DNA of 64,000 bases from Alphaproteobacteria bacterium (GCA_013298565.1 JAAFIC010000007.1:3196-67195), one strand, 5' to 3'; positions 1-22,840 are shown, numbered from the stretch's first letter. The notes: a model not told the origin generated them from the letters alone. A program made the numbers and translations.

Positions 1-2464
1 AGCCGCCAAGATTAGGCAGCAGCCCGAACCAGCCATCCAGCGCCAACCCGGCGCGGGCCTGGGCGCGATACAGCGCAATTCCGAGCACGCCCGTTAGAAT
101 CGGGGCGAACGTCGCGCCACTTTGCGTAACGAGATTCTCCAGGCTGCTGCTATCAGAATAATTCATTGCCGCGCCGACGGGCAGGGTTTGGCCATCGACG
201 ATAAGGGCGGGCGCCCCGACCGCCATCGACCAGTCCCAGCCGGTCGCAGGCCCCCAGTTCAGCACTAAGGCGGATGGGCCAACAGCGAGAGCAGCGCCCG
301 CGACCGCAGGCGTGGTAAAGCCGTTGGGCAGGCCGGCGGTGACGGCAATCACCGGGAACGGCGTCGGCGCGCTAATTGCTCCAGCATTGGCGGTGAGTGC
401 CAGCAGCCCGGCGTTTAGCCGCAGATCGAGCGGTGTACTTTTGGCTAAGGTGATGCTGGACCCCGCCGCTAGCCCAACCGTTAGGCGCGTGCCGCCCGTG
501 GTAGGAGAATCGAGGAAGGCCGCCAGCGAAATGATCGTGCCGCTCGGCCCCAAGGCGACCAACCAAGGGTCGCTCGCGGTGCCGTCCCCCGTCACGCCGC
601 CGGGCGATGCGCCGGAGAGGGTGAGCAAATCGCCCAAGGCCGCAATCATGTAATGGAGCGGTTTTTGCGTGCCGATGGTCTCGCTGCTGGCGATCACATT
701 GGCCCAATAGGTGCTGAAGGCCGTGACCGGGTTCTGGAAACTGTTCAGAATCGCGCTGGGTCCGAACGGCGGCGCAAGATCGGCGGGCCAAATCTGGTTC
801 TGCGACAGGGCGGGTGTGCCAACCCCCAGGAGGGCGGCGAGCGATTGACCGACTGTGGTTGATTCACTGCCGAACAGGCGATTGAAAGCGGCAGTGAGCG
901 CGGTCGCGAGTTGATCGGCGGCGACCTGCACTACGTCTTGCGGATCGAGCAGATTGATACTGCCGTAACTGCCCGTCGGCGTGGTTACAGCGTTCAAGGT
1001 AAAGGTTGGCAGAAGAGTGACGCCTTCGGTTGGGTTGAGCAAGCTCACCCCACCGCTAACGCTGCCGAAAACGAAAGTCTGCCCGCCAACCTCGCCTGAA
1101 AACAGCGGCTTGCCGTCGGTACCGCTTAAGTGCAGGCCAGCGGAAAAATTACCCGTCAGGCTGGCGGAACTGCCACCGGGGGTGAGCAGAAAATCCATCA
1201 ACTCCAGCGCGGCGACGGCTTGGAACTGCGTGCTTCCGCCGATAATCTTGCCCGCCGACTGGTAGGTAAGGCCCGGATACAGGTGCCGCAGTCCGCTCGC
1301 ATCGACGGCAGTGCCAACGCTCAGGGCGAGCGCGCCAATCGAACTCACCGAGAACAGCGGAATTTGATAGGGATCGACGCGGCTGCCGCTGCCGGAAATC
1401 GCGGGCGTCTCGCCCGTCGCACCCGCAACGAGACCGCCAACCGCCGCAAGCCATGCCTGCAACAGGGTGGCATCGCCCGCAATCGCCGTGAACCAATCGC
1501 GGATCGGTTGGGCGATGTCGCCGCCTGCGACAGCGAGCGCGGCGAATTGATCCCAGCGCAGGATCGGCAGGGTCACGTCGGCGATGCCGGGAACGCTTGG
1601 CCCCAAACCCACGGCGGGCAGAATATAGCCGGTCGCGGCAGTCTCGCCGATAGCGCGCGTTAGCGCCCCCATCGCCAAGGCGGCAACCAAGGCTAAAAGC
1701 TCGGCCCCGCCAATGGCTTCGAGATCGGCGAGGGTATAATCTTTCGCCACCGACTCAGTTGGCAGAACGAGATTTTCGATGACTAAGGACACGCCAACGG
1801 CGGGGTTTGGCACAAACGATAAATCGCAGGTTAAGCGCACGCCGGTGAACGCGAAGCCATTGGTGGAAATCAGGCTTTCGCCTTCGCCCGCCGTCACGTC
1901 GAACCCGATTGTAATAGCGCCTTCGGCAGTGCCGAGTGCGACCGCAACCGACCCATCCATTTTCAGCAGCGGTACGAGACCCCAGACATTGAGGTTAATT
2001 TTATCTGGCCCGCTCAGTCCCGCCGCCGCCGCGCTCACCTCAACTTCAGAGAGGGCGACGCTGGTTTGATAGAGCGTGCCGACGCCCAAAATACTGCCGC
2101 TACTGCCCGTGGGCGTGCTGGCGATGTAGAGGCCCGTGGGTTTGGGGGCAGGGGTCGCCTCCGGGTTTAGAATCGGATACCAAACCCCCAAATTGGCCGG
2201 GGCCTGCGCGGGAATGCCAAGCGAGCCGCCCGAGGCTTGCCCAATAAGCTGCGCGATTAAGGCCGCAAGGGCAGGGCCACCCGAGGCCAAGCCGTCGCCA
2301 GTCTTGCCAATCGGGTTAGCGAACCAGTCCGGGTTGAGACTAAAGCTGCCCGGCGTGCCGGGGTCTTCGGTCAAAAGCCCAATGGCCGTGCCGAGGGTTA
2401 AGATCGGCGGATCAGCTTCCGTCGCGGTCAGCGTAAAGGGGTTGTCGGTCAGCGTGGCAATCAT
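1..2464 (-). CDS. N-terminal 821 codons of a very large hypothetical protein (3' end lies beyond the window start)
   Basis: This ORF is absent from the supplied track because it has no in-window stop. Hand translation of the minus strand from ATG 2464 (MIATLTDNPFTLTATEADPPILTLGTAIGLL...LRWDQFAALAVAGGDIAQPIRDWFTAIAGDATLLQAWLAA...) stays open to position 2. Third codon positions are GC-rich. The only track ORFs in this span are short and lie in other frames. The product is Ala/Gly/Leu/Thr-rich, with no signal peptide and no domain I can name. Confidence 0.6.
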   Translation of the reverse strand, partial: MIATLTDNPFTLTATEADPPILTLGTAIGLLTEDPGTPGSFSLNPDWFANPIGKTGDGLASGGPALAALIAQLIGQASGGSLGIPAQAPANLGVWYPILNPEATPAPKPTGLYIASTPTGSSGSILGVGTLYQTSVALSEVEVSAAAAGLSGPDKINLNVWGLVPLLKMDGSVAVALGTAEGAITIGFDVTAGEGESLISTNGFAFTGVRLTCDLSFVPNPAVGVSLVIENLVLPTESVAKDYTLADLEAIGGAELLALVAALAMGALTRAIGETAATGYILPAVGLGPSVPGIADVTLPILRWDQFAALAVAGGDIAQPIRDWFTAIAGDATLLQAWLAAVGGLVAGATGETPAISGSGSRVDPYQIPLFSVSSIGALALSVGTAVDASGLRHLYPGLTYQSAGKIIGGSTQFQAVAALELMDFLLTPGGSSASLTGNFSAGLHLSGTDGKPLFSGEVGGQTFVFGSVSGGVSLLNPTEGVTLLPTFTLNAVTTPTGSYGSINLLDPQDVVQVAADQLATALTAAFNRLFGSESTTVGQSLAALLGVGTPALSQNQIWPADLAPPFGPSAILNSFQNPVTAFSTYWANVIASSETIGTQKPLHYMIAALGDLLTLSGASPGGVTGDGTASDPWLVALGPSGTIISLAAFLDSPTTGGTRLTVGLAAGSSITLAKSTPLDLRLNAGLLALTANAGAISAPTPFPVIAVTAGLPNGFTTPAVAGAALAVGPSALVLNWGPATGWDWSMAVGAPALIVDGQTLPVGAAMNYSDSSSLENLVTQSGATFAPILTGVLGIALYRAQARAGLALDGWFGLLPNLGG

Positions 2465-2489
2465 GGCCTGCGCGTTTTTAAGAGACTCA

Positions 2490-3533
2490 TCAGGCATCGG
2501 CGGGATCCTTTCCCTCGGTCCAGACTATTGAAATAGGAATACCGTCAGCGCCCGTGCGCCCGTGCGATCCAACCCGACCTAGCGACCCATCGGGGGCACC
2601 AAGCCCGGCGTTCCCCGGCGTTCCGGCGATCCCGCCATGACCGCCGAGTGCAGTTGGCGTGATGAGGCCTAGGCGCGCGCCGTCGGCCCGGTCGCGAATA
2701 CCAATCTCGAAGCGCCCGCCCGCACCGCCGCGTCCACCATCGCCACCATCGCCGCCGTCGCCGCCGTTACCGCCGCCGCCCATATCGAAAAAGGCGATAG
2801 CATGACCGCGCCCACCATCGCCGCCCCCGCCGCCGGGGCCGCCGTCGCCCCCTTGTCCGGCCTGGGCTTCTATGTCGATACGCCCGGCAAGATGGTGCAG
2901 GAAGATTGATTGATCGGGCAGCGCTTGGCCGGGTTGTCCGTCGCTTCCAACGCTGCCCGCTGTTCCTGCAACCCCATCGGGAATGTCGCGGCTGCCGCTT
3001 GATCCTGTTGAACCAGCGGAGCCGGGGCTTCCCGCCTGCCCAGGTGGTGCCCGATATACAATCCGGCCCGGCGCTTGCGGATCGGCATAGGCCGAGCGCG
3101 GGTGCGTTAGTCCAAGGAGTTGGCCCACCGTGAGCGTTAGCGGTGCCGCCACCTGCAAAACCCCGCCCGGTTCAATCGCCAGCCGATACGCGATGAGATC
3201 GACAGGATCACCGAAGGGCGATTCGATCAGCAGAGTTTTGCCACTGCGGATAATGAGATCGTCGAAGGCAAAGCGAACCCGCTCGTGCCGGAAGGTTTGC
3301 ATGGCGTCATAGTCGGAGCGCCGCGCCACCCAGGACAGGCGGCAGATGTCGCGCTGGCGACAGGTGTCGATATAGGCGGGCCGCACCGGCGTGGGGTCGA
3401 GCCTATGGAATGCCAAAACCCGGTCGATAGCCTGCGCCGCTGCCTCGGGGATTTCGGCATGGCCCATACAGCGCCGCGCCGTCCAGGTTGGGCGGGGTAG
3501 GGTTTGCGGGATCAGGGGGCGGGCGGCGCGCAT
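2490..3533 (-). CDS. Glycine-repeat protein with an N-terminal globular domain of about 170 aa (hypothetical)
   Basis: Track ORF 2490..3551 begins with TTG. An ATG at 3533 lies 10 nt after the upstream stop. The C-terminal half alternates short hydrophobic strands (SIFLHHLAGRIDIEA, AIAFFDM, RFEIGIRD, IPISIVWTEG) with Gly tracts (GQAGSPGSAGSTGSSGS, GGDGGPGGGGGDGGRG, GGGGNGGDGGDGGDGGRGGAGG). Confidence 0.6.
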   Translation of the reverse strand: MRAARPLIPQTLPRPTWTARRCMGHAEIPEAAAQAIDRVLAFHRLDPTPVRPAYIDTCRQRDICRLSWVARRSDYDAMQTFRHERVRFAFDDLIIRSGKTLLIESPFGDPVDLIAYRLAIEPGGVLQVAAPLTLTVGQLLGLTHPRSAYADPQAPGRIVYRAPPGQAGSPGSAGSTGSSGSRDIPDGVAGTAGSVGSDGQPGQALPDQSIFLHHLAGRIDIEAQAGQGGDGGPGGGGGDGGRGHAIAFFDMGGGGNGGDGGDGGDGGRGGAGGRFEIGIRDRADGARLGLITPTALGGHGGIAGTPGNAGLGAPDGSLGRVGSHGRTGADGIPISIVWTEGKDPADA

Positions 3534-3543
3534 TGACTGAGAT

Positions 3544-5286
3544 TTACCCAACGCTCAAAAGCTGCGCGTAGAGCGATGCTGCGTGATAGCTCGTGCTATT
3601 GGCCGCCGTTGTGTCGCCGCCAGTCACCTGTATCGCCGTCGGCACGCCATACGTGGCCCCGCTGCCAAGGCGCTGGGTCAGCACATCGGCGGGTCGCTGC
3701 ACTTGAAAGCTGATTAGCCCGCTTGCCGAATAGAGGCTATTGGCGAGGGTAAAATCGGCGAAAGGCTGAGTGCCGAAACCATAAACGGCAGCGGCTTTCG
3801 GCAGTGCAGTGGGGTTGTTGATTTGCGCCTGATAGGCCAAGGTCGCCGCCGCAGCCCCGCCGTAATCATGACCGACATAGTAAACGCCCCCGGCTGTGGA
3901 TTGTTCGGCAAGCGCTGCGCTTAGGGCAGGCAGCAGCAGATCGACAAAGGCCAGAACGCCGCCGTTGATACGGCCATCGGTCATCCAGGTTGGGCGCGTG
4001 GTATAGCCGGGGCCGTTGATGAACCCTGTTTCTGCCAATGTCGCCGGGCCGCGAATAACAATGACCAGGGCATTGTTCGCGGGGTTTCTAAACAAAACTG
4101 CCCAGGGTAGGTTCGTCCAACTCTGCCCCGCCAGCAATACTGACCCCACGACCGTGTAGGGCGCGGGTACCGAAACCGCCGCACCGGGGTGCTGGCAGAG
4201 ACCATAGGTCGCCACGCATAGCTGCGCGAAAGCGGCGGCCAAATGCGGATCGAACCCTGTGGGCGGGGTGATGAGCGTGCCTGTTCCAGCTTGCGCTGGG
4301 ATTGCGCCGCCAAAGCCTTGCGAATAGACCGCCGGGGTACGATCGTACCACGGGGTATCGAGCGTGGTGCCAACTGTAAGGGTTAGGGTTTGCGGCGTGC
4401 CAAGCGTTAGAATGCCTGATGGTAAGCCAAAACCGCTCGGCCATAAATCGGTGTTGGGGGCGTTGATGCTGAACAGGCCCGAAACTGCCTTCGTTGCGAC
4501 GGTCGAAAAACTGCTGTCGCCCAACGGCGCGGCGGAGAACGCATAGCAACCGATGTCGGAGGCCGGGCTAACCTGCGTCGCCCCAAGCGGGCCGGTTTGG
4601 CCGGGGCGAAGGTCCAGCGCCGCCAGTTGTGCAATCGCGGCACTTGGACCCATGCCAACGCACAACAACGGGATCGAAGTATTGAAACCGGGTACATTCT
4701 GGAGCATCGGGAGCATCGACCAGATGGCGCTGCGGGCGTTGCTGTAGAAACTATTTGCCAGAAGTAGAATATTTCCCGTGGCAGCCGACGCATCCAACTC
4801 TAGCGCGGCGCGGCGCTGGTTGGCAGGCAGACGGGCCAGGGCAACCAGCGGGCTATCGATCTGGCCCCCAGTTTCGTCGGCACGCAGGCGCAGCACCTCA
4901 AGGCTGATTTCTGCCTCGGCGAGGGCATTGGTAAGCTCTATATCGTCGTGCGCCTCCGCCTTGCCTTGCAGTCCCCCGAAGGACAAATAACTCGGCGTGG
5001 CGCTCATCGTCGTGAACAGCGATGATTTAGCCCCGTAGAAAAAATCGGCCCAGCGGCAGCCGAAGGCCAGAATGGCGACGGGGGTATTGTTCCCGCCAAT
5101 CGGCAGTGTCGCTGTCAGCAGCAAGCCTTGCAGGCCGCCTGCTTGCCCGCCTGAAACCGAAAAACTGGTCACGAGATTGAACGTCGGGGGAACCCAAGCC
5201 TCTGTTACCGGGAGTGTCCCCGCCGGATCAATCAGTTGCAGCAGAGAGTTCGCGAGGCTGGGCGAATAGTTGGAAAAAATAGACAT
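3544..5286 (-). CDS. Tandem lipase class 3-like (alpha/beta hydrolase-like) protein with the nucleophile Ser missing in both halves
   Basis: A 580-aa ORF preceded by a GGGAG SD. The second half has LVIVIRGPAT ... VYYVGHDYGGAAAATLAY, which resembles lipase_3 (xVVAFRGT ... GHSLGGALA) with Ser replaced by Asp. The first half has VAILAFGCRW ... LLCVGMGPSAAIAQLAAL, with Ser replaced by Gly. No signal peptide is visible. Confidence 0.6.
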   Translation of the reverse strand: MSIFSNYSPSLANSLLQLIDPAGTLPVTEAWVPPTFNLVTSFSVSGGQAGGLQGLLLTATLPIGGNNTPVAILAFGCRWADFFYGAKSSLFTTMSATPSYLSFGGLQGKAEAHDDIELTNALAEAEISLEVLRLRADETGGQIDSPLVALARLPANQRRAALELDASAATGNILLLANSFYSNARSAIWSMLPMLQNVPGFNTSIPLLCVGMGPSAAIAQLAALDLRPGQTGPLGATQVSPASDIGCYAFSAAPLGDSSFSTVATKAVSGLFSINAPNTDLWPSGFGLPSGILTLGTPQTLTLTVGTTLDTPWYDRTPAVYSQGFGGAIPAQAGTGTLITPPTGFDPHLAAAFAQLCVATYGLCQHPGAAVSVPAPYTVVGSVLLAGQSWTNLPWAVLFRNPANNALVIVIRGPATLAETGFINGPGYTTRPTWMTDGRINGGVLAFVDLLLPALSAALAEQSTAGGVYYVGHDYGGAAAATLAYQAQINNPTALPKAAAVYGFGTQPFADFTLANSLYSASGLISFQVQRPADVLTQRLGSGATYGVPTAIQVTGGDTTAANSTSYHAASLYAQLLSVG

Positions 5287-5328
5287 TCTGTCGCTCCCTT
5301 AAATGGGGCCGGGGAAAAGGGCATAAAC

Positions 5329-5354
5329 GGGGGCAGCGCACGCGCACCGCCCCC
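5329..5354 (-). terminator. Intra-operon GC-rich stem-loop, possibly a partial terminator or attenuator
   Basis: GGGGGC...GCCCCC arms enclose a GC-rich loop. On the minus strand the stem-loop is followed by GTTTATGCCCTTTTCC. It sits between the stop of the 243-aa Gly-repeat gene and the start of the lipase-like gene. Confidence 0.35.
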
Positions 5355-5371
5355 AAAGCTGACTGGAAAAA

Positions 5372-6103
5372 CTAAGCGGTGCGGCTGATCGTATAAGTTC
5401 CGGCGGCCCCGCTTGTGGCGGTCGCGCCGCTGGCACCACCACTGCCATTGATGCCGCTTCTGGCAGAGCCGGTATTGGCTTCGTTAAGCCCACCGGCCCC
5501 GCCGTTACCGCCGTTGCCTGCGACTCCCCCGGTGCCGCCGACGCCGCCCATCGGTTGGCAGTAAATGAGGCCCATGCTGGTTTTCCACAGAACAGTGACA
5601 GAGCCACCATCGGCCCCTGTACCGCCGCCGCCGCCGTTACCGCCATTGCCGGCAGCGCCGCCCGCCCCACCAACAACAGGGCTGGTTTTATGCGTGTTGA
5701 GGCATTTCGAGATATAGTCCGACGAGTCGCTTTGAGGGGCGTCGCCGCCCTTGCCGCCATTCCCGCCGTTGCCACCACTTCCGCCGCTACCACCGTTGCC
5801 GCTTACGGACACGATGCTGAGAGGACCGACGAGCGTGTCGTAAATCAGGCTCAAGGCCGGAGCGATTGTGCCAGATGTTCCACCAGTGCCCGACTTGCCC
5901 GCTTCGCCCGCCGTACCGGGGGCACCGGAGGATGATGGCGCGCAGGTTCCCGAGGGGCAGCAACCGCCGCTGGTGTTGTAACTCCCCGGCGTTCCATCTG
6001 TCCCGGCCTTGCCAGGGCTACCAGGGGTGCCGTTTGCGCCATCCGTTCCGTCAACCCCGAGGATTCTTATCTGGTAGCCGCTCAAATCCAGTGCGCGTGC
6101 CAT
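5372..6103 (-). CDS. Glycine-repeat protein A (collagen-like GXY tracts plus GGN/GGS tracts; hypothetical)
   Basis: A 243-aa ORF preceded by an AGGAA SD. It contains QIRILGVDGTDGANGTPGSPGKAGTDGTPG (eight consecutive G-X-Y triplets), the Cys loop GGCCPSGTCAP, LSIVSVSGNGGSGGSGGNGGNGGKGG, the loop YISKCLNTHK, GGAGGAAGNGGNGGGGGTGADGG, and SVTVLWKTS. It ends in TYTISRTA. Confidence 0.7.
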   Translation of the reverse strand: MARALDLSGYQIRILGVDGTDGANGTPGSPGKAGTDGTPGSYNTSGGCCPSGTCAPSSSGAPGTAGEAGKSGTGGTSGTIAPALSLIYDTLVGPLSIVSVSGNGGSGGSGGNGGNGGKGGDAPQSDSSDYISKCLNTHKTSPVVGGAGGAAGNGGNGGGGGTGADGGSVTVLWKTSMGLIYCQPMGGVGGTGGVAGNGGNGGAGGLNEANTGSARSGINGSGGASGATATSGAAGTYTISRTA

Positions 6104-6212
6104 GGAATGATTTCCTTTGTGCTAGAGCAAATTCCGGGCAGATGGGTTCACCTGCAACGGTGCCTTTGCTTCAAAATCAATGACTGGAAAACGCTGCCGC
6201 GACCCCGAAGGA

Positions 6213-6896
6213 TCAGGCCGGTTGAAAGATGATCTGACCGATTTGGGAGGGAGACGTGGGCGCGCCGTTAGCGCCAGTTGAGCCGCCGCTGCCATAACCG
6301 AGATCCCCGTTGCCCGTCCCTGGTGCCCCGCCGTTCCCGCCCGAGGCCCCTTGACCCGCCCAACCGTATTTGCTCGTGTCCATCGTCATGCTGGTTGCAT
6401 TGTTCTGCTCGAACGTGATCAGAACCGTTGGGCCTTTGGGGGCACCATTGCCACCATTGCCGCCTCTGCCGCCGCCGCCGCCCTGACCGCCTTTGGCGTT
6501 GGCATAGGAAGTCGAGTTGCAGCAACTAACAGCAGTGCCGCCAGCTCCGCCGGTCCCGCCGGTCCCGCCGCCGCCGCCAACTCCGCCGCTGCCGCCCTGG
6601 CCACCGAGAACCTGAAAGATAAAAGCGCCTGTGATTACCTGAGTATAGTTGGTGAAGTCAGGTGCCGGTGAGCCGTCTGTGCCCCGGCCCCCGTCTATTC
6701 CGGCTTGGCCCGTGCCGCCATTTTGCGGCGGGCTTGCCGATGTCCCACAGTTTTGATTTTTGTTGCCGCTACAGGCACCCGCGTAGAAAGCAGCCCCGCT
6801 AGAACCGGCCCCTCCGGTAGCTCCGGCCCCGCCAGCGGTCCCGTTCGCTCCCATGACAAAAAATGTAGGAACAGCATCTGTAGAAACGGAAGTCAT
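6213..6896 (-). CDS. Glycine-repeat protein B (paralog of 5372..6103; hypothetical)
   Basis: A 227-aa ORF preceded by an AGGAGA SD. It has the same module order as protein A: TFFVMGANGTAGGAGATGGAGSSG, the Cys loop ACSGNKNQNC, GGTGQAGIDGGRGTDGSP, AFIFQVLGGQGGSGGVGGGGGTGGTGGAGG, the loop SCCNSTSYAN, GGQGGGGGRGGNGGNG, and TVLITFEQN. It ends in IGQIIFQPA. Confidence 0.7.
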   Translation of the reverse strand: MTSVSTDAVPTFFVMGANGTAGGAGATGGAGSSGAAFYAGACSGNKNQNCGTSASPPQNGGTGQAGIDGGRGTDGSPAPDFTNYTQVITGAFIFQVLGGQGGSGGVGGGGGTGGTGGAGGTAVSCCNSTSYANAKGGQGGGGGRGGNGGNGAPKGPTVLITFEQNNATSMTMDTSKYGWAGQGASGGNGGAPGTGNGDLGYGSGGSTGANGAPTSPSQIGQIIFQPA

Positions 6897-6919
6897 AATT
6901 TTCTCCTGATTTTAGGGTT

Positions 6920-7549
6920 TTATTTGCTAATTATTTGATTTGAAGTGATGCTAACCGGGACATTCATTTGAACGTATCCGCCAGACTCAATGGTAATCGT
7001 CCCGAAGGTTAACTGTGCCGGGTAAGAGCTATCAATGATTAGCGGATTGCTTGCCGTAATCGTAATATCTTGACCGGGCGTGTACGTAATCATCATCGGG
7101 AAATGCAGGCTATTGATAGCGTCTTCATGTTCCGACGAAACGCGGCGGCTATCGCCCAGCACATAGGAGCGCATGTGCGTTGAGAGCGTATCAATATCGT
7201 CTGCCGACAGCAGCGATTTGAACGTGCAGCTATCAGTCTTAGCGCGCTCGATGAGCGCCCGGAAATTGGTAGGGGAGGCCCCTAGGTACGTAATGTGGCG
7301 ATCTGCCCCCGGCGTAGCATCGAAATGCGCGTTGGGAACGCCGCCAATAGCCTTGTATTGGGCGATGTTAGCAACTTCGACTTGCTGGGAGCCAAGGTTA
7401 TCGCGCGATGGATTGCTCGAAATAACCATCGGGCCTTTGTGCGTATTCGGCCCAAAGAAGCGACCTGATAGCGCTTCTACACTCGAGCCAAGCGCCTTTA
7501 AGCGCGGCGCCAGAAAGTTCTGCTGATCTTGGGTAAGCAAAGTGGCCAT
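6920..7549 (-). CDS. Hypothetical protein, first gene of the orphan operon
   Basis: The track ORF extends to 7630. ATG 7549 (MATLLTQDQQNFLAPRLK...) is preceded by AGGAG at 7 nt spacing. The C-terminus looks beta-rich (ITITASNPLIIDSS...LTFGTITIESGGYVQMNVPVSITSNQIISK). I recognise no family. Confidence 0.65.
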   Translation of the reverse strand: MATLLTQDQQNFLAPRLKALGSSVEALSGRFFGPNTHKGPMVISSNPSRDNLGSQQVEVANIAQYKAIGGVPNAHFDATPGADRHITYLGASPTNFRALIERAKTDSCTFKSLLSADDIDTLSTHMRSYVLGDSRRVSSEHEDAINSLHFPMMITYTPGQDITITASNPLIIDSSYPAQLTFGTITIESGGYVQMNVPVSITSNQIISK

Positions 7550-7623
7550 GGAAATTACTCCTGGGAACAAGCCAAGCGGGTGGATTTGGGAAAAGAGCAG
7601 CCTTAAGGCGAAGAAGTCGAAAA

Positions 7624-7649
7624 AACGCAAATTCTGGCTTGCATGTTCA
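7624..7649 (-). promoter_or_regulatory. EcfG-like promoter candidate (tGAAC-N17-CGTT) upstream of the orphan operon
   Basis: The minus strand reads TGAAC-atgcaagccagaatttg-CGTT about 75 nt upstream of ATG 7549. Compare the perfect GGAAC-N16-CGTT sites in this same window at 21926-21950 and 22816-22840. This site has one mismatch in the -35 element. Confidence 0.3.
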
Positions 7650-7801
7650 CCGCCTACGTCTCGCTTCAGGCATAACCCTCATATTATAATATTCTGAAAA
7701 GCGCAACACCCTAAGATGTATTTTGAAAATATATTCTTTTTTGAATCATACTTAAATGCGTGTAGCTTTGATCGAGTTTGGACGGTTGAAAGGATTTTTC
7801 C

Positions 7802-8587
7802 ATGTCGCCTCGGCCCCTCACCGATACGCCTGCGGCCCGTATTCCTCGGTTAAAACCTTGGCTGCGCCGATTGCGGCGGCGGTTTGCGCTCTATAATCTT
7901 GCTGGCTGGTTGAACCCGGTGTTCGATCTGTGGGTTGGTGGGCGGCAACGCCAGGTGTTCTATGATATCGATCACGACGCCCCCGCCTTGCGGCAGTTGG
8001 ATGCAGCTTTTCCCGAAATTCTATCGACCTTTGAAAGGGTTATGGGGCATCTGGAGCGGCTGCCCGCGTATCACACGCTGGATCACGACGTGATTTATTC
8101 ATCGGGCCGCGCGCAGCGGGATGCGCGCTGGGGCGTCTTTATGATTACCTGTTTTGGTCATAAGCCGAAGGCGGCGACGACCTTATGCCCGGACCTGATC
8201 GCGCGGCTTGAAGCAATCCCCGGTCTCTATCAAGCCTTCTTCTCGGTGCTTGAGCCGGGAAAATCAATACCGGCGCACGTTGGCCCGTCGCGGGTTTATC
8301 TCCGCTATCACCTTGGCTTACAGGTGCCGACCGAGGCGACGCCAACGCTGCGCGTTAAGGATCAAACCTACCGCTGGAAAACCGGCGAAAGCATTCTCTT
8401 CGACGATTCTTGGGATCATGAAATTGAAAATCATTGCCCTAAGATGCGGGCCATTCTTATCGTCGATGTCCAGCGGCCCTTGCCGTGGCCTTTAACCTGG
8501 ATCGCCTGGGTTCAACGCAAAACAGCGGCGCTGCATTATGCACGCCGGATTGTTGCTGCGGCGGATCGTTTGATCCCATCTTCTTAG
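7802..8587 (+). CDS. Aspartyl/asparaginyl beta-hydroxylase family (2OG/Fe(II) oxygenase, LpxO/AspH-like)
   Basis: A 261-aa ORF with the family-typical stretch GKSIPAHVGPSRVYLRYHLGLQVP followed by ILFDDSWDHEIENH. An AAAGGA SD precedes it. It is divergent from the orphan operon across an AT-rich 252-bp spacer. Confidence 0.8.
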   Translation: MSPRPLTDTPAARIPRLKPWLRRLRRRFALYNLAGWLNPVFDLWVGGRQRQVFYDIDHDAPALRQLDAAFPEILSTFERVMGHLERLPAYHTLDHDVIYSSGRAQRDARWGVFMITCFGHKPKAATTLCPDLIARLEAIPGLYQAFFSVLEPGKSIPAHVGPSRVYLRYHLGLQVPTEATPTLRVKDQTYRWKTGESILFDDSWDHEIENHCPKMRAILIVDVQRPLPWPLTWIAWVQRKTAALHYARRIVAAADRLIPSS

Positions 8588-8680: not shown

Positions 8681-10129
8681 ATGGCTGTAAGTATCGAGAG
8701 TGCGGATACAGGACAGCTTAGATTAACCGCCGCTCAAGGCTACGCCCGCTATTTATCGGTTGCGGTTGTAGGGCAGCGGTTTGCCATTCCTTTAGATCGC
8801 GTTATCGGTGTTACCGAGAGTACAACGCTAACCCCCCTACCGTTTAGCCCACCACCGTTCGAGGGGCTTGTTCTAGCGATGGGGCAAGTGGTGCCGCAAA
8901 TCGGCCTTGCCGCGCTGCTGGGGCTGAAAACCCAGGAAGCGGGCGTGCTTGTCTTGATCTCCGATTTTGGCGGCAGTGTTGGGCTGCGGGTGGACCAGGT
9001 TCATGCTATGATCCAGGTCGATCTCGAACAAGTTACGCTCACCTCCTCGGAGGAGCGAGCCGATGCGCCGATGATCCTTGGGAGATTTGGGGAAGGGGCT
9101 TTAGCGTGCTCCTTGCTCAATCTCGATCACCTCACCACCGATACCGGCATGATGAGCTTCGCCGAGAGCGGGGCGGTTTTGCTAGCGTCTGAAATCGGGG
9201 CCGGGGCGCTGGAGGCGGATGAGGCTAGCTCGGATCAGACCCAGCCCTACTTGATGCTCGACGTTAGCGACGAAGTTTATGCGATCAAAATTGATCATCT
9301 GGTCGAACTGTTGGAGCTTTCCACTCTGCGCCCGGCCCCCCACGCGCCCGCCTGGATCGCTGGGTTGATTGACCGGCGCGGCGCACCGCTGTTGGGATTG
9401 TCGCTCGCGGTGCTCTTGGGACGGCCTGAAGGAAGATCTGGCAAGCTCGGTGTTGTGGTCGCGCTTGAAACGGGGGATGTTGCGCTGATTGCCGATCACA
9501 GCCTTGGGATCGAGCGTTATGCCGCCGATCAAGTGCATGGCTTGCGCGAACCCGTGGCGGGAATTGCGAGCTATCTGGTGAATGCCGATGGCAGCATCGT
9601 GGGCATCCTCGATACGCAAACGCTGCTGAACCCAGTGCAGGATGACGTATGCCTCTGGACGCCCAAGGCAACCACCTCCCCGGTTGCGGTGGCCGGGCCA
9701 GTGACGCCGATGGAATTCCATCAATATCTCACTTTGCGGATTGGGCGGGAGTTTTTGGCCGTGCCGCTGGACCGGATTCAACGGGTGGAAGCTTCCATCG
9801 AGATGACCCCGATCCCGGATCGGGGAACCGGCTTTCATGGGCTGGCTGATGTGGGTGATGCGGTGGTGCCGGTGATTGATCTGCGGCAAGTGCTCAGCGG
9901 TGGGGCCGAGCCGATTGTGCTGGAGGCCAATCCACCGTGTTTGCTGGCGATGGTCGAAGGTGGGATTGCCGGGGTTATCGTTCATCAGGTTCTGCGGATC
10001 GAAACCGTGCCGGAAAACCAGATTAGTCTGGCGGAGGATGTGAATAATTTGCCGATTTCACAAATTATTCACGTTCAGGACCGTCTCATGAGTGTTGTTT
10101 CACTCGACCGGTTGCTTCCACCCCTGTAA
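8681..10129 (+). CDS. Scaffold protein with three tandem CheW-like domains
   Basis: Three repeats of the CheW signature are present: QRFAIPLDRVIGVTE...FEGLVLAMGQVVPQIGLAALLG; EVYAIKIDHLVELLE...IAGLIDRRGAPLLGLSLAVLLG; REFLAVPLDRIQRVEA...FHGLADVGDAVVPVIDLRQVL. Confidence 0.85.
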   Translation: MAVSIESADTGQLRLTAAQGYARYLSVAVVGQRFAIPLDRVIGVTESTTLTPLPFSPPPFEGLVLAMGQVVPQIGLAALLGLKTQEAGVLVLISDFGGSVGLRVDQVHAMIQVDLEQVTLTSSEERADAPMILGRFGEGALACSLLNLDHLTTDTGMMSFAESGAVLLASEIGAGALEADEASSDQTQPYLMLDVSDEVYAIKIDHLVELLELSTLRPAPHAPAWIAGLIDRRGAPLLGLSLAVLLGRPEGRSGKLGVVVALETGDVALIADHSLGIERYAADQVHGLREPVAGIASYLVNADGSIVGILDTQTLLNPVQDDVCLWTPKATTSPVAVAGPVTPMEFHQYLTLRIGREFLAVPLDRIQRVEASIEMTPIPDRGTGFHGLADVGDAVVPVIDLRQVLSGGAEPIVLEANPPCLLAMVEGGIAGVIVHQVLRIETVPENQISLAEDVNNLPISQIIHVQDRLMSVVSLDRLLPPL

Positions 10130-10179
10130 CCCTGAATGCGTAACGCTGATCGTGTGTGTGAGCGTTAGAGAGTACGTCC

Positions 10180-10581
10180 GTGGCGAATACCTGCGTGGTC
10201 CTTATTGGTTTCGAGCCTGTTATGCACGATCTGCTCTTGGATCGGTTGCAGGCGGATTTCCTCAAGCTCACCGCCGCAATAGGCCTTGATGCGGCCTTAA
10301 GCGCGGCGCGCGGCGCAACGGCGGCGGATCGTCTTCTGATTGATATTGATGGTTGCCCGCAGGAGCCTGCGGGGGTCATCGCCAAACTCCGCCTGGTCAG
10401 TGCCGCGCCAATTATCGTTCTCAGTGCCACGGTTGCGCCGGGCAGTGCCAATGCCAGCGCCTTTTTGCAGGCAGGAGCTTCGGCACTGGTCACAAAACCC
10501 GCAGGCGCATTGCCGTTGGTGTGGTCCGGCGAGGCCGGGGAGCCACTTCTCCACGCCCTTCGGGAGGCGCTGACCCGATGA
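10180..10581 (+). CDS. Single-domain receiver-like protein (divergent CheY-like)
   Basis: A 133-aa ORF. LLIDIDGCP is a candidate phospho-Asp site, and IIVLSAT and LVTKP occupy the T/S and K positions. The N-terminal acidic pair is degenerate (LIGFEP). Its stop overlaps the cheA ATG (ATGA). Confidence 0.55.
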   Translation: MANTCVVLIGFEPVMHDLLLDRLQADFLKLTAAIGLDAALSAARGATAADRLLIDIDGCPQEPAGVIAKLRLVSAAPIIVLSATVAPGSANASAFLQAGASALVTKPAGALPLVWSGEAGEPLLHALREALTR

Positions 10582-13313
10582 GCACCAATAACTCCGATCT
10601 GGTCGAACAGTTTGCGATTGAAACCCAGCAGCATCTGGACGAAATCGAACCTATTCTGTTTTTGCCGGAAGGCGAGCTTCCCGATCAAGCCACGATTGCG
10701 GCGCTGTTTCGCGGGTTCCACTCGATCAAGGGTCTCGCCCGCGTGCTGGGGCTGCGCGGGCTGGAGGCGCTGGCCCACCATACAGAAAGCCTGCTGGCGG
10801 AGGTGCGGAGCGCGCGCCAACCGTTCACGCTTGCACTGCGCGATTTGCTGTTGGAAAGCCTCGACGCGATTCGCACACTGCGGGAACACGGCATCGTCGG
10901 TGGTTTGGACGAACGCGCGCCGCCTGCCTTGTTAAACGCGCTGGAGGCGGCGCTGCACTCTGGGGCGAAAGGTGCAACCTTAAACGATGCAAGCCCGCAA
11001 GTTCCCGAAGGCGCGCTCCACCCTGATGCCGAAACGCTCACCTATTTTGCGGAAATGCTGGCGGATTGCCTGCCGGGCCTCGCCGTGCTCGCCGGGGTAA
11101 CTGGCTGGCGCGATCAGGCAGTGAGCGATCTTGAGATGCTGCTGGTGGCGGCTGAAAAATTGGCGTTCCACGGTCTGTCTGCCCGGCTGTATGCGCTGGC
11201 CCCGACCGTCGATCCCGCGAATATCGAGCCTTTTGCCGCTGTCATCGCCGATGCCCGGCGCTTTGGTCGATTGATTGAGCAGGATGTGGGGGCCGAGGCC
11301 GCGTTGGCTGCAATCGCCCCGCTATTGCGCCTGACCCGTGCCGAGATTGCGGCAGATCTGCTGCCCGCTCTTGGCCTCAACGCTACCGAAGCTCGCACGC
11401 TGACCGCACGGCTCGTGACGATTGCAGCGGCAGGGCTTAGCGATGGCGAGATTTCTCTTAACGTGATGCAGAGTTTGGACGCGCCTGCGGTCTATCCGGC
11501 CTTACGTGCCGCGCTTGAAACCTTGGTGAGGGGTGGTAGCTCCGGTAGCGACGACCTCCTGGAGCTAGCCGGGGATCGGCTACGCGAGGCGATTGCGGCC
11601 CCTTGGGTTTTGTCGCCGCCCGTGCGTAAACTTCTCGAAGATCGCGGTATTGCGCCCGCGTTGTTGGGTGATTTGTCGCAAGATCGGATTGGCCCGCTGC
11701 TGGAAATTTTGGCCGGGAGCGAGCGAAGACTGCTGCTGCTCACCCTTGCCTTGCCAGTGCGGGGCGCGCGGGCCGATTTTCTCGCTTGGCTCAACCAGCG
11801 CTTCTTCCCCACGGCGGCGCGCGCGTTCACGCAGAGCGGGGTTGACGTCGCAGCGCTCCTGGTTGTGAGCGCCGACGCCCCACGCGCTATACGCGCCGAT
11901 ATTTTGGCGGCTTACCCCGATCTAGCCTTTGTCGATACCCGCGTGCTAATTGACGATTCAGTGGAAACCCCGTGGTCGCCGCCCCGAACCGCCAACAAAA
12001 TCAGAGGGAGCGACCCTGCCGACAATCAGGTGCGCGTTCCCGTTGAGATTCTGGATCGGTTGTTCGGGCGTATTGGCGAGTTTTTCAGCATCAGTAGCGC
12101 GCTGAACGTCTTGATCGTCGATTCGCAAGTTCCGACCATCCTTCATAAGCTGGCCGATCACGCCATGATCAAGGAACCGGCGCTGCTGCCGATGATCGAC
12201 ACGCTCCAACGCCAGCAGAACGATCTGTCGCAGGTGGAAGCCGAAGTGCATCGGCTGGTCAGCCTCATTCACGAGGCGACGTTGGGGCTGCGGGTCATTC
12301 CGCTCGATATCGTTTTCAACCGTTTCCCGCGCATGGTCCGGGAGTTCGCGAAAGAGGAAGGCAAGCAAATCCGCTTCGAGGCGCGGGCTGACGGCATTAA
12401 GGTCGATAAAGGCATGACCGAGTTGCTGGCTGATCCGCTGATGCACATGCTGCGGAACGCCGTCGATCACGGTATCGAAAGCGCGGCGGAGCGGGCGGCA
12501 ACCCATAAACCGCCGCTCGCTCATATCCGCCTGAGTGCCGAGCAACTCGGCAACCGCATCGTTATCGAAATCCGCGACGATGGCCGGGGTATTGATAGCG
12601 AGCGCGTCCGGCGACGGGCGGTAGCCCAAGGGCTTGTGACCGATTACGACAGCCGCAAGCTCTCGGTAGAGCAGATCAATCGTTTTATCTTCGCGCCCGG
12701 CTTTTCCACTGCCGATAAGGTCAGTGAAACCTCGGGCCGAGGCGTCGGTATGGACGTGGTGCTCATCAACATCTCGCGCCTCGGCGGGCGGATCGACGTT
12801 CGCACAGTGGTGGGGCAAGGGGCGATCTTCCGGCTCGATATGCCGCTGTCGGCGGCGATGCAAACCGTGCTGCTGGCCGAAACTTCGGTTCAAACGGTGG
12901 CCTTCCCCGAACGCATGGTGGTCGAAGCGGCAACCGTGCAACGCGACACTATTCAATACGTCAACGGTCAGCGCGCTATTTTGCACCATGACCGCTTCTT
13001 ACCTTTGTTCGGGCTAACCGACCTGCTTCATATCCCGGCGGGGGTGGATCGGGAAGAGCAGGGGGATTTGTCGGTTATCATCGTCTCCTCCGGGCGCTTT
13101 CGCTATGGGGTTGAAGTCACGCGCATTTTGCGCCGTCACGAAATGCTGATCCGCGAAACTCACCCGCGCATCGCCCAGCTTCCCGGCATCGGTGGGGTCT
13201 CGACCCTCGGCACCGACAGGATTGTGCTGGTGGTCGATCCCGAAGGGCTGACCGATCTTGCCCGCCGGGCCATCGTGCCGGGGATGCGCGTGCCGTCTCA
13301 GGCGGCGGAGTGA
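10578..13313 (+). CDS. cheA: Chemotaxis histidine kinase CheA (911 aa, with a long insert after the HPt domain)
   Basis: The start is taken at ATG 10578 (MSTNNSDLVEQFAIETQQHLDEIE). The upstream part of track ORF 10353.. overlaps the previous gene and looks non-coding (Cys/Arg/Gly-rich). Motifs present: HPt FHSIKGLARVLGL, N-box HMLRNAVDHGIE, DDGRGID, GRGVGMDVV, and a C-terminal CheW-like domain. Confidence 0.9.
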   Translation: MSTNNSDLVEQFAIETQQHLDEIEPILFLPEGELPDQATIAALFRGFHSIKGLARVLGLRGLEALAHHTESLLAEVRSARQPFTLALRDLLLESLDAIRTLREHGIVGGLDERAPPALLNALEAALHSGAKGATLNDASPQVPEGALHPDAETLTYFAEMLADCLPGLAVLAGVTGWRDQAVSDLEMLLVAAEKLAFHGLSARLYALAPTVDPANIEPFAAVIADARRFGRLIEQDVGAEAALAAIAPLLRLTRAEIAADLLPALGLNATEARTLTARLVTIAAAGLSDGEISLNVMQSLDAPAVYPALRAALETLVRGGSSGSDDLLELAGDRLREAIAAPWVLSPPVRKLLEDRGIAPALLGDLSQDRIGPLLEILAGSERRLLLLTLALPVRGARADFLAWLNQRFFPTAARAFTQSGVDVAALLVVSADAPRAIRADILAAYPDLAFVDTRVLIDDSVETPWSPPRTANKIRGSDPADNQVRVPVEILDRLFGRIGEFFSISSALNVLIVDSQVPTILHKLADHAMIKEPALLPMIDTLQRQQNDLSQVEAEVHRLVSLIHEATLGLRVIPLDIVFNRFPRMVREFAKEEGKQIRFEARADGIKVDKGMTELLADPLMHMLRNAVDHGIESAAERAATHKPPLAHIRLSAEQLGNRIVIEIRDDGRGIDSERVRRRAVAQGLVTDYDSRKLSVEQINRFIFAPGFSTADKVSETSGRGVGMDVVLINISRLGGRIDVRTVVGQGAIFRLDMPLSAAMQTVLLAETSVQTVAFPERMVVEAATVQRDTIQYVNGQRAILHHDRFLPLFGLTDLLHIPAGVDREEQGDLSVIIVSSGRFRYGVEVTRILRRHEMLIRETHPRIAQLPGIGGVSTLGTDRIVLVVDPEGLTDLARRAIVPGMRVPSQAAE

Positions 13314-13317
13314 CGCG

Positions 13318-13806
13318 ATGGAGTTTCACTATCTCCACGTCCGCTGTGGCCCTTACCGCATTTTGCTCCCTGGCAAAAACATTGGTGGTATTGATTCCGC
13401 GACCGATGCACCAACGGGACGGCAATCCTTTCGCCGCGCTCGCCGCGAAGGCCGGTTGCCAATGATTGATGCGCGGCGGCTGTTGGGTCTGGCAGCAGAG
13501 GGCGGCGGCACCCCTGTGCACATCTTCTGGCGTCAGCCGGACGGGGCGGTTTGCGCGATTTTAGCGGTGGATGGTGTCGAGGGTCTACGCGGCGGGTTCG
13601 AGGCGGAGTTTCTGCCGCTGCCGCGCGCGCCGCTGGGGTTTCATGAGATGTTTGATCGCTTGGTGTACGATAAGGATGGCAGCTTTCTGCTGCGATTGCG
13701 GCAGAATTTTCAGCCATTTTTGGGCGATATTCCGGGGCGTCGGCGGTTTTTAGGGGCCATTACCGGGGCAACGTGCGGCCCTGCTAGCGGGAAGGTTGCG
13801 CCATGA
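13318..13806 (+). CDS. Divergent CheW-like coupling protein
   Basis: ATG 13318 lies 4 nt after the cheA stop (MEFHYLHVRCGPYRILLPGKNIGGID...ILAVDGVEGLRG...FLLRL). The resemblance to CheW is weak. Its position in the operon supports the call. Confidence 0.5.
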   Translation: MEFHYLHVRCGPYRILLPGKNIGGIDSATDAPTGRQSFRRARREGRLPMIDARRLLGLAAEGGGTPVHIFWRQPDGAVCAILAVDGVEGLRGGFEAEFLPLPRAPLGFHEMFDRLVYDKDGSFLLRLRQNFQPFLGDIPGRRRFLGAITGATCGPASGKVAP

Positions 13807-15500: not shown

Positions 15501-15544
15501 CCTTTCCCCTCTCATGCTGACACTTGGCCTCTTGGAGACACATC

Positions 15545-17251
15545 ATGTTTCGTTCCCTTAAGATCAGAGAGAAACTTTTGTTTCCAATCGGCCTGTTGAT
15601 TGCCGTTCTGATTGGCTCGACCTATATGCTCGTAACGGAACTGAGCCGTACGACCAAGACGTTCGAGAGCTTGATTCAAACCGAGTTGCGTGCCCGGTTT
15701 ATCTCCAAAGACCTGTCGGCGATCCTGTCAGATAGTGGCCGCTTGGCCAATCTTATGCTGCTTCAGCGGGAAGCGGCGGATTTCACGGCGACCGCAGATA
15801 GATTACGCAGCTATCTTGCGCTCATCCAACCTCGCCGTGACGAGTTGGGGCGGCTCGCCCCCCATAAGGCCACTGCGCTGGAGAAGGTTACGCTGGCGCT
15901 GGTCTCGATGGAGAAGTCCCTACAACCGACTTTGGACCTAAAGCTCGCTCGGGATTTCGAGGGGGCGGCGGCCTATTGGGCCGCAAATGGCCGTTCCGCG
16001 CTGCTGCCCGCGCTAAACGCCATGAACGAAGCCGCCGACCAATTGCAAGCCGCCGCTGCGAAGGCCGTGGTCGATCAGGTCGATGAGGTCAACGAGCTTG
16101 TCTTGGATTTGGTTATCGGCTTGAGCGCGGTTATTTTCGTAATTGCTGCGTTGGCGCTGCTGATCGTGCTGCGCGGTGTCGTCGCGCCGATCAAACGGCT
16201 TACGGCAAAGATCACTCAACTCTCAGGGGGCGATGGCAATTTCGAGTTGCCGGAAGCCGAACGCGGGGACGAGTTGGGGGCGATGGGCCGCGCGTTGCTG
16301 GTTTTCCGCGAGAACGCTGAGAAAATCAAAGTCGCCATGACCGCCGAAGCCGTGACCATCGAGATTGGGGAGGTGATCGCCCAGGCCGCCCGGAACGATC
16401 TAACCGTTCGAGTGAATCTTGACAATAAAACCGGCTTTCTGCGAAACATCGGCGCGCAGATCAACCAGTTGGTTGAAGGCAGCAATAATACGCTGAGGGA
16501 TATTGGCCTAAAGACCCGGCAAGTGGCAGTGGCCGTAGCGGAAGCCAGCGCGGCGGTGGGCCAAGTTTCGGGCGGGGCGCGCGTGCAGAATAATGCCGTT
16601 GGGCAGGTCACGCAGTCCTTGACGGAATCGGCCAAAGCCATCCGTATGGTTTCGACCAGCGCCAATGTCGCCAATGAAAAGGGCGTGCTGGCCGCCAATC
16701 TGGTGGAACGCGGGCGTGGGTCGGCAGAAGATTTGTCGCGGATTGTCGAAAAAGTCGCCCAGAACAGCCGTAAAATCAGCCAGATCACGCAAGTTATCGC
16801 CGGGATCGCCAACCGCACCCATATTCTATCACTGAACGCTGCCATCGAAGCCGCGCGCGCCGGCGAACACGGCAAGGGCTTCGTCGTCGTCGCTCAGGAA
16901 GTGGGCAAGCTCGCCGAAAGCGCGGCCCAGAACGCCCAACAGATCACCGATATCGTCGAACAAGCAACAGCAGACGCGGCGGCAGGCCATACCGCCTCGA
17001 TGCTGGTGAAGCAGACGATGGAGTCGATTGCAGGCGAGGTTTCGGAAACCAGCCAGATGATCCGGTCGATTGCGGTGGCGATGGAAGAACAGCAGGCTAT
17101 TGTTTCGCAAATCGAAGGCAATGTGACCGAGTTGCGCGGTATCGCTTCGGGCAATGCGGTCGCGGCGGAAGAAATCACCGCTACTATGATCCAACTCTCG
17201 CAACTGGCCGACGATCAGCGCAAGCAGGTCGATCAGTTCAAAACCCAATAA
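15545..17251 (+). CDS. Methyl-accepting chemotaxis protein (2 TM helices, HAMP, MCP signalling domain)
   Basis: ATG 15545 follows a GGAG SD (the track ORF starts at TTG 15524). There are two hydrophobic helices. The signalling hairpin is [41 protein letters not shown]. Confidence 0.9.
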
Positions 17252-22806: not shown

Positions 22807-22815
22807 ATTTTAGCA

Positions 22816-22840
22816 GGAACTAAATTAAGTGTTAAGCGTT
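22816..22840 (+). promoter_or_regulatory. EcfG-type promoter (perfect GGAAC-N16-CGTT) for the DUF883 operon
   Basis: The sequence is GGAAC-taaattaagtgttaag-CGTT, in an AT-rich spacer about 100 nt upstream of ATG 22938. Confidence 0.7.

Follow-up and report, generated by a model that had tools for sequence, protein, structure and literature searches.

What is encoded by a run of six tightly packed genes that ends in a giant protein cut off by the limit of the available sequence? The genes occupy positions 1–7549, on the minus strand, of a 64,000-nucleotide stretch of DNA from Alphaproteobacteria bacterium (GCA_013298565.1, JAAFIC010000007.1:3196-67195); the whole of this stretch is referred to below as the window. 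An initial annotation, made from the sequence of the window alone, had described the genes as an orphan six-gene operon, and neither adjective was retained. The genes form the promoter-proximal end of a longer operon, which comprises at least 10 genes and is a Rhodospirillales-specific elaboration, found in Elstera-like bacteria and Niveispirillum, of a widespread, mobile and uncharacterised cassette. Most of the conserved core of the unit, a protein with the domain DUF6603 and its partners A, B and C, is encoded past the end of the window. When the DUF6603 domain, which the giant protein carries, was used as the query, at least 588 proteins were found, and the family of the first gene comprises 130 cluster representatives. 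We are highly confident of this anatomy of the operon and the cassette.

Six genuine genes open a longer operon

The six genes are listed below in the order of transcription.

6920..7549, minus strand: g1, 209 aa, stand-alone N-terminal domain of a fibre-like family in which this domain is followed by a glycine-rich region
6213..6896, minus strand: g2, 227 aa, glycine-rich, with collagen-like GXY runs, GGX runs and Cys; hypervariable cassette
5372..6103, minus strand: g3, 243 aa, paralog of g2, with an N-terminus of 8 uninterrupted GXY triplets
3544..5286, minus strand: g4, 580 aa, tandem Lipase_3-like protein
2490..3533, minus strand: g5, 347 aa, with an N-terminal segment of its own, a g1-type beta motif (aa 73–143) and a collagen-like/GGX domain
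1..2497, minus strand: g6, first 832 aa of a giant of ~3125 aa that continues past the window edge

All six open reading frames (ORFs) were reproduced at the positions and sizes first assigned to them. They are genuine genes under purifying selection and not chance ORFs, because synonymous changes outnumber non-synonymous changes in all six and the gene order is kept in relatives. The comparison was made with the orthologs of a 90%-identical relative, of which the entire 24-kb contig (L016) was recovered. The synonymous/non-synonymous codon differences were 48/12, 51/25, 45/28, 78/54, 52/36, and 112/39 for g1 to g6, at 88–95% amino-acid identity, and g6 was 95% identical over 832 aa. Co-occurrence of the genes in related genomes had been set beforehand as a test of the operon. 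The same gene order was found in relatives from 100% down to 57% identity and in Niveispirillum. All contigs with a g4 homolog encode, in this order, proteins of 207–209, 222–227, 242–249, 577–585, and 347–350 aa, followed by a giant of 3125–3141 aa with DUF6603.

AGGAG-type ribosome-binding sites precede g1 and g2. Inside the block, 9 intrinsic terminators were found where 10.3 were expected, which is no excess over chance. The ORF listing and the translation showed the g6 frame to be open from position 2464 to the window edge, and g6 had been started there, 25 nt after g5. The start is more probably the ATG at 2497, which overlaps the g5 stop by 8 nt, because the peptide MPDESL..AQAM is conserved and the start is called at this position in L016; the last gap would thus be −8 nt. 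A simple hydropathy scan detected no transmembrane helix or signal-peptide-like N-terminus in any of the six products, in agreement with the initial annotation. The products are acidic, with a lysine plus arginine content of 2–6% in most of them and up to ~10% in g1 and g5.

The L016 operon comprises at least 10 genes. The giant is followed by genes encoding 513, 302, 1263, and 450 aa (g7–g10), with an 18-nt gap, a 40-nt gap, a 4-nt overlap and a 42-nt gap between g6 and g10. Downstream of g10 on the same strand, L016 also carries an acyl carrier protein (ACP)-like gene (PP-binding_2, weak match) and a ketoacyl-synthase gene (22566–24088), with a 23-nt gap and an overlap.

The giant protein combines DUF6603 with upstream genes

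Since the window ends inside g6, the DUF6603 domain and g7–g10 were assigned through L016 and a second relative, L002. The giant of these relatives contains a full-length DUF6603 domain (PF20248) at aa 2047–2536, which scored 446.2 bits (E = 1.8e-133) against a gathering score of 27 bits. The giant is a gene fusion, in which the DUF6603 protein was joined with several upstream genes in the Rhodospirillales lineage. Its segments are encoded in a metagenome-assembled genome (MAG; L010) by six separate genes of 106, 800, 159, 602, 889 (DUF6603), and 282 aa. Compared with typical DUF6603 proteins, which are 880–1000 aa long, the giant's ortholog has the full-length domain in common, and its partner genes are those found in Pseudomonas, Paenibacillus, Streptomyces and Acetobacteraceae. 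The differences are the fusion of ~2000 aa from upstream genes, the division of partner A in two and the presence of additional genes for glycine-rich and lipase-like proteins.

The operon of Niveispirillum irakense is compact, with a 463-aa fusion of the g1 domain to a glycine-rich region, a 653-aa Lipase_3 protein and a 3238-aa giant, the latter 46% identical to the operon giant over 2650 aa. A 490-aa protein upstream of DUF6603 in locus L013 matches only the first ~240 aa of the giant and the segment just before DUF6603. The window-encoded N-terminus of the giant thus belongs to the conserved core, and the middle ~1500 aa are lineage-specific. A word-indexed protein search with the 821-aa g6 fragment returned no match although giants of 90–95% identity exist and the collection searched contains the L016 giant. 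Proteins of at least 3000 aa were also missing from the results of this search with DUF6603, and its null results are thus unreliable for proteins of this size. The metagenome scan yielded only one 5-kb fragment.

The DUF6603 cassette is widespread and mobile

The cassette consists of co-directional genes for the DUF6603 protein, partner A (~715–930 aa), partner B (~1050–1420 aa) and usually a fourth protein of ~450–530 aa (partner C). It is carried by the L010 MAG, Pseudomonas sp. NFXW11 (L011), an Acetobacteraceae MAG (L012), a Paenibacillus polymyxa plasmid (L004) and three Streptomyces plasmids (L005, L017, L018). In comparisons with L010, L011, L012, L004, and L005, the L016 genes g7 and g8 together corresponded to a split partner A (E down to 1e-136), and g9 corresponded to partner B (E down to 1e-82). 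The fourth position was less uniform. BLAST linked g10 only to an Ig-like 296-aa protein of L010, and the 528-aa fourth protein of L011 only to Streptomyces proteins of 367 and 378 aa. At the level of sequence, the homology of the partner C genes to one another is thus not demonstrable for all loci.

The cassette occurs on plasmids in Streptomyces, Embleya, Kitasatospora, Paenibacillus and haloarchaea, where partner B matches lie 3–5 kb downstream of the DUF6603 matches in the same records, and its distribution across Bacteria is patchy. On the Streptomyces europaeiscabiei plasmid NZ_CP107864.1 (L018, 5524–28993), the genes for DUF6603, A, B and C and a pentapeptide-repeat gene are bracketed by four tyrosine recombinase/integrase genes. 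This suggests that the L018 cassette rides on an integrative element. The view that the operon is not a recent import fits the chromosomal context of the window, but it does not extend to the core cassette, which is mobile elsewhere (on plasmids, and integrase-flanked once).

At other loci, the neighbours of the cassette include CATRA/CHAT genes and a Fic toxin, with Hint-domain or PLD-like genes downstream. In 3 of 11 independent loci (L004, L011, L014), VgrG/PAAR/DUF2169/Rhs islands precede the cassette on its own strand, at a distance of up to 10 kb. In Pseudomonas L011 and Niveispirillum L014, these genes are directly upstream and co-directional, and in Paenibacillus L004, VgrG-like and DUF4280 genes lie ~8 kb upstream of the cassette. 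The L014 island (Niveispirillum irakense AUCG01000004.1, 1–9126) encodes VgrG, DcrB, a prePAAR-PAAR-RHS toxin and a CdiI_5 immunity protein. It ends ~900 nt upstream of the g1–glycine-rich fusion that opens the DUF6603 operon.

Four of the window genes encode a glycine-rich, fibre-like family

A full HMMER scan (E ≤ 1e-3) defined the 130 cluster representatives of the g1 family, 85 of which are stand-alone proteins of ~200–240 aa. The family had no match in Pfam, NCBIfam or the Protein Data Bank (PDB), and its members are all named "hypothetical protein" in the source records. Every member of at least 380 aa (36/36) carries a C-terminal glycine-rich region (22–42% Gly, with GGX runs) that is collinear with g2; P0143 is one of the fused homologs that align in this way through their C-termini. 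Because all long g1 homologs carry this g2-collinear C-terminus, g1 and g2 are the split version of one fused protein. The operon thus has three members of the family, namely the split pair g1 and g2, g3, and g5.

The initial annotation had also regarded two of the glycine-repeat proteins as paralogs. The full lengths of the g2 and g3 proteins could be aligned collinearly (33% identity; 56 invariant columns, including Cys), which upholds this view, although their similarity was not significant in composition-corrected BLAST. Residues 73–143 of g5 correspond to the C-terminal beta motif of the g1 family (g1-family hidden Markov model, E = 1.5e-9; hhalign probability 92.6%, E = 4.6e-7) and are followed by GXY/GGX runs. 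In L010, the gene for a 238-aa homolog of g5 immediately precedes the split giant. The g5 protein is the fused-type member of the family, and its gene is placed directly upstream of the giant.

Most of the glycine-rich family members contain 2–8 Cys residues, and their GXY runs are 5–8 triplets long. The proteins fell outside the collagen-like class as defined by existing profiles: Pfam Collagen scored 16.4 (g3) and 22.3 bits against a cut-off of 27.2, and SclB scored 12.7 against a cut-off of 325 bits. Glycine-rich proteins of the polyglycine II (PGII) or collagen-like type include the gp38-type adhesin tips of phages, mycobacterial PGRS domains, the snow-flea antifreeze protein, Bacillus BclA and streptococcal Scl. 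The window proteins resemble these fibres in that GGX/GXY triplet runs alternate with short beta segments, and the hypervariability of g2 resembles that of receptor-binding tips. They differ in that there is no sequence match, no LPXTG, exosporium or PE domain, and in that the N-terminal g1 domain is unique.

The hypervariability of g2 is sharply confined. Nucleotide identity between the window and relative L001 was 60–69% exactly over positions 6203–7001 (g2), in contrast to 82–94% along the rest of the operon. The corresponding amino-acid identity was 61% for g2 and 86–95% for the other genes. The g2 gene is thus a sharply bounded block that looks like the product of allelic cassette replacement.

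Two further searches with this family were negative. The g1 profile matched a DUF1888-type peptidase (E 0.019) and a fragment of a VgrG (E 0.049) only weakly, and hhalign against the Niveispirillum VgrG gave a probability of 0.3%, so these relationships were rejected. A tblastn search of plasmids with a g1–glycine-rich fusion (P0132) gave no match.

The lipase-like protein g4 has Asp in place of the catalytic Ser

The g4 protein matched Pfam Lipase_3 (PF01764) in two stretches with 35.3 bits, against a cut-off of 22 bits. As first noted, both Lipase_3-like halves lack the nucleophile: the GxSxG elbow with the catalytic Ser is absent from either half. In the N-terminal half, which is degenerate, the elbow reads G-M-G-P-S/G/A. 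In the C-terminal half, it reads GHDYG, with an invariant Asp474 in the place of Ser, and two further invariant residues follow, namely Asp534 (RPxDVLT) and His568 (SYHAA). Judged by the order of the motifs, Asp534 and His568 would occupy the positions of the triad acid and the triad His. GHDYG, Asp534 and His568 are invariant in 9 homologs, the only close ones among 5.8 billion proteins, and in a 38%-identical Niveispirillum protein. Because this Asp/Asp/His set is kept down to 38% identity, the earlier description of the protein as a catalytically dead scaffold is not established.

The AlphaFold2 model of g4 was poor (predicted local distance difference test [pLDDT] 48.7, and <50 over residues 505–580). 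Even so, in a Foldseek search this low-confidence model retrieved class 3 lipases, namely the Rhizomucor and Thermomyces enzymes and feruloyl esterase A (AnFaeA). With class 3 lipases, g4 shares a C-terminal half above the Lipase_3 gathering score, a model that retrieves lipases and AnFaeA, and, putatively, the conserved acid and His positions. It differs from them in the invariant Asp for Ser (GHDYG) and in the extra degenerate N-terminal copy. It also differs from both class 3 lipases and Tle2 effectors in that no signal peptide, immunity gene or vgrG was found in its window.

DUF6603 is predicted to form a large beta-meander

The AlphaFold2 model of DUF6603, built on a 102-sequence alignment, had a pLDDT of 77.5, a predicted TM-score (pTM) of 0.71 and a core above 90. 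It consists of ~28 long antiparallel strands, broken by a single helical insert, and a small beta domain after them. The strands are amphipathic, with one hydrophobic face, and the analysis cannot tell a barrel from a sandwich. A Foldseek search of PDB and BFVD retrieved only generic large beta-barrels or belts (SlpA, Occ porins, LptD, ushers, SprA and the ApoB100 belt). The best matches were outer-membrane barrels, but with TM-scores ≤0.2. No signal peptide was seen, and the family is also found in Paenibacillus, Streptomyces and haloarchaea. The predicted fold class is that of a large beta-meander with no identified homolog.

The operon appears to lie outside the known kinds of systems

Searches of Pfam, NCBIfam, PADLOC and PHROGs with the six window products found nothing except Lipase_3 and sub-threshold or weak matches. 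In PDB, sequence and profile searches with g1, g4, the g6 N-terminus, DUF6603, partners A and B, and the g1-family profile gave no significant match. In the full-text literature, no mention of DUF6603 or PF20248 was found, and the polyglycine II literature held nothing relevant. Thus, as first stated, none of the products could be assigned to a known functional module, be it through Pfam, NCBIfam, PHROGs, PADLOC, PDB, Foldseek or the literature, and the profile searches for a known module, such as a tail-fibre block of a phage or gene transfer agent (GTA) or an adhesin locus of a type I secretion system (T1SS), found no placement.

Individual systems were compared by their defining features. 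The repeats-in-toxin (RTX) adhesins of T1SSs were not recovered: no product matched HemolysinCabind or another RTX Pfam family, and no T1SS genes were found in the sampled window ORFs or in L016. Tc/ABC toxins are multi-subunit secreted complexes without signal peptides. The cassette shares with them and with Rhs/PAAR toxins very large co-transcribed proteins that lack signal peptides, mobility, patchiness, a beta-rich shell-like fold and VgrG/PAAR/Rhs genes near 3 loci. It differs in that no cassette protein has a VRP1, TcA_TcB_BD, SpvB, RHS or PAAR domain. In particular, the giant and partners A, B and C gave no Pfam match to the Tc signature domains (VRP1, TcA_TcB_BD, SpvB, RHS), and Foldseek retrieved no Tc structures. 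Because no defining feature of a known system was found except the Lipase_3 fold (without its Ser) and membership in the function-less DUF6603 family, we place the operon outside every known kind of system; the structural part of this comparison covered PDB and BFVD with one domain.

A possible extracellular assembly and its alternatives

The initial annotation had favoured a multi-protein structural assembly over metabolism, and this remains the most plausible reading in general terms. As a whole, we propose an extracellular conflict or adhesion assembly of a new kind that lacks signal peptides, a proposal that we rate as close to an even call, with the balance slightly to its disadvantage. 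The extracellular beta-rich assembly is suggested because of the composition of the proteins, the absence of Sec signals, the Cys-containing glycine-rich proteins, the replacement of g2, the mobility of the cassette and its VgrG/Rhs neighbours. The mechanism sketched here is itself doubtful. The large, acidic, Lys/Arg-poor proteins without signal peptides would assemble into a big beta-rich particle or surface structure, which would function in conflict between organisms or in adhesion, beyond the cell that produces it. The 28-strand amphipathic beta-meander of DUF6603 may serve as a shell or membrane-contacting element, and the glycine-rich proteins, possibly trimeric, as fibre-like recognition elements, of which g2 would be the exchangeable specificity determinant. 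The g4 protein could be a lipid-directed enzymatic or lipid-binding component, in which the unusual Asp at the nucleophile position is used or the activity has been lost. Export would be independent of Sec, by T6SS-type spikes (of the type VI secretion system, often encoded nearby) or by lysis.

If this proposal is true, a conserved set of proteins that totals ~6000 aa at each locus and is present in hundreds of genomes or more constitutes a machine without a described relative and a new player in microbial conflict or surface biology. More broadly, DUF6603 with partners A, B and C may be an unrecognised mobile machine of Bacteria and some Archaea, which builds a new extracellular particle for toxin delivery or adhesion independently of signal peptides and which is equipped in Rhodospirillales with glycine-rich fibres, a swappable g2 and an Asp-nucleophile enzyme of the Lipase_3 fold. 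In this extended form, the idea is tentative and rather unlikely. The Rhodospirillales additions offer handles on the function, namely a hypervariable fibre-like gene, a lipase fold with Asp for Ser, and a giant fusion that can serve as a "Rosetta stone" linking the parts. DUF6603 now has a defined genomic context, and it can be approached in culturable carriers, which include Niveispirillum irakense, Pseudomonas sp. NFXW11, P. polymyxa YT9 and S. clavuligerus ATCC 27064.

Several observations weigh against an extracellular assembly. No experiment or known homolog backs any function, and the extracellular location would follow only from composition, Cys content and hypervariability. No secretion genes were found among the scanned ORFs of the 64-kb window or in the 24-kb relative contig. 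VgrG adjacency is missing in 8 of 11 loci and could merely reflect clustering in variable islands, and the cassette is also present in Gram-positives and archaea, which have neither an outer membrane nor a T6SS. The trimeric fibres are conjecture: the GXY runs are as short as given above, PDB offers only weak hints for the g1 motif (E 0.02–0.05), and hhalign did not support the VgrG similarity. The g4 model is of the low quality described, and with Foldseek TM-scores that were all ≤0.2, a barrel or shell is not established for DUF6603.

Among the alternatives, an intracellular anti-phage or abortive-infection cassette fares best, although we regard it as improbable. Here, detection of an infection by DUF6603-A-B-C would lead to death or arrest of the cell, and the glycine-rich and lipase-like genes would contribute effectors or sensors specific to the lineage. 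The plasmid-borne and integrase-flanked copies, the CATRA/CHAT conflict genes and the Fic toxin beside the cassette, the patchy phyletic distribution and the lack of detected export signals are all consistent with defence. However, PADLOC-DB v2 gave zero matches for g1–g6, g7–g10, P0010 and the Pseudomonas cassette proteins, and the ~6000 aa of conserved protein contain no NTPase, nuclease, protease or sensor domain. Collagen-like/GGX fibres, a low Lys and Arg content and an allelic, hypervariable g2 are also atypical of defence systems.

It is quite improbable that the locus encodes a dedicated T6SS cargo or effector complex that VgrG/PAAR spikes would carry and whose lipase effector, similar to Tle2, would be g4. 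Lipase_3 is a domain of Tle2-type T6SS effectors, and the VgrG-associated islands upstream of the cassette in L011, L014 and, at ~8 kb, L004 fit such a complex. Elsewhere, the association fails: no vgrG, PAAR or T6SS core gene was found in the 64-kb window or in the relative contigs. Likewise, no vgrG, PAAR or immunity-like gene of a Tle2 island was present in the window, L001 or L016, and of the operons compared, only that of Niveispirillum has a vgrG-Rhs island upstream. The cassette also occurs in Streptomyces, Paenibacillus and haloarchaea, all of which lack a T6SS. Furthermore, its proteins of 1000–3000 aa far exceed the typical cargo size, and g4 has neither the GxSxG serine nor an obvious immunity gene.

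A lipid-associated intracellular or envelope assembly is very improbable. In such an assembly, the DUF6603 sheet would wrap or contact lipid like the beta-belt of ApoB, while g4 binds and the neighbouring hydroxylase (described below) modifies lipid. Besides outer-membrane barrels, Foldseek indeed matched DUF6603 to the ApoB100 beta-belt (E ~9e-4, probability 0.97), but with TM-scores ≤0.2. The amphipathic strands of the DUF6603 model and the tandem Lipase_3 fold of g4 would also suit a lipid partner, but g4 is limited to a handful of genomes and the cassette is widespread. The conserved OlsC/LpxO-like neighbour and the ACP and ketoacyl-synthase genes after g10 point in the same direction; however, the former is absent in Niveispirillum and at other cassette loci, and the latter were seen in one contig only.

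Finally, a degenerate host-recognition (tail-fibre) block of a phage, GTA or tailocin, to which the collagen-like/glycine-rich segments, the hypervariable cassette, a weak collagen-type "tail protein" match of g3 in PHROG (E = 0.0027) and some low-score BFVD tail-fibre matches of DUF6603 would correspond, was rejected as the least probable origin of operon and cassette, since DUF6603 had no tblastn match in 50,697 phage records, neither DUF6603 nor partner B had relatives in 2.9 million IMG/VR contigs, g1, g2, g4, g5 and g6 had no PHROG match, and capsid, tail and terminase genes were found in 0 of 11 loci.

The divergent hydroxylase and the rest of the window

Two further features adjoin the operon at its promoter end.

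7550..7801, no strand assigned: AT-rich intergenic region between divergent genes, with the presumed promoters of g1 and the hydroxylase
7802..8587, plus strand: divergent gene for an Fe/2-oxoglutarate hydroxylase of the Asp_Arg_Hydrox family (OlsC/LpxO-like; Pfam PF05118, E = 5.7e-36)

The best NCBIfam matches of the hydroxylase, OlsC with 133 bits (cut-off 450) and LpxO with 90 bits, were far below the cut-offs. The gene accompanies the operon in three relatives, including L001 and a contig of 57% identity from the Joint Genome Institute (JGI), and is absent beside the Niveispirillum cluster and the other cassette loci. It is probably an accessory gene of the operon. In L010, positions 1–3131 hold two TPR/Glyco_transf_41 (O-GlcNAc-transferase-like) genes directly upstream of the g5-like collagen-like protein; a protein-modifying enzyme of another type stands in the position that the hydroxylase occupies in the window.

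The intergenic region showed 89% column identity among the window, L001 and L002. It contains one sigma-70-like match, on the plus strand, which is no more than expected by chance. An EcfG-type promoter upstream of g1 (GAAC-N17-CGTT), an idea that came from the PhyR/NepR/EcfG locus beside L001, was rejected, as the match was not conserved in L001 or L002.

On the other side of the hydroxylase, the window carries a chemosensory cluster on the plus strand (8681–17251). It comprises a 482-aa ORF that is likely multi-CheW-like, a putative CheA ORF with CheA-like features in its sequence, a fusion of a response regulator with an adenylate/guanylate cyclase, and a methyl-accepting chemotaxis protein (MCP). 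In L001, a PhyR/NepR/EcfG general stress locus is found on that side of the hydroxylase and operon. Because the chemotaxis genes of the window are thus replaced by this locus in L001, the hydroxylase–operon block has moved relative to its flanks.

The remainder of the window is chromosomal housekeeping sequence, as judged from ten large ORFs that were scanned, the chemotaxis-type ORFs and a riboswitch. It encodes CheW/CheA, MCPs, MetE, xanthine dehydrogenase, adenine deaminase, flotillin, an ABC transporter and purine catabolism. The riboswitch is a cobalamin riboswitch (36846–37073, minus strand, 119 bits) directly upstream of the gene for MetE, the cobalamin-independent methionine synthase (34446–36827, minus strand), and the two together form the classic arrangement for repression by B12.

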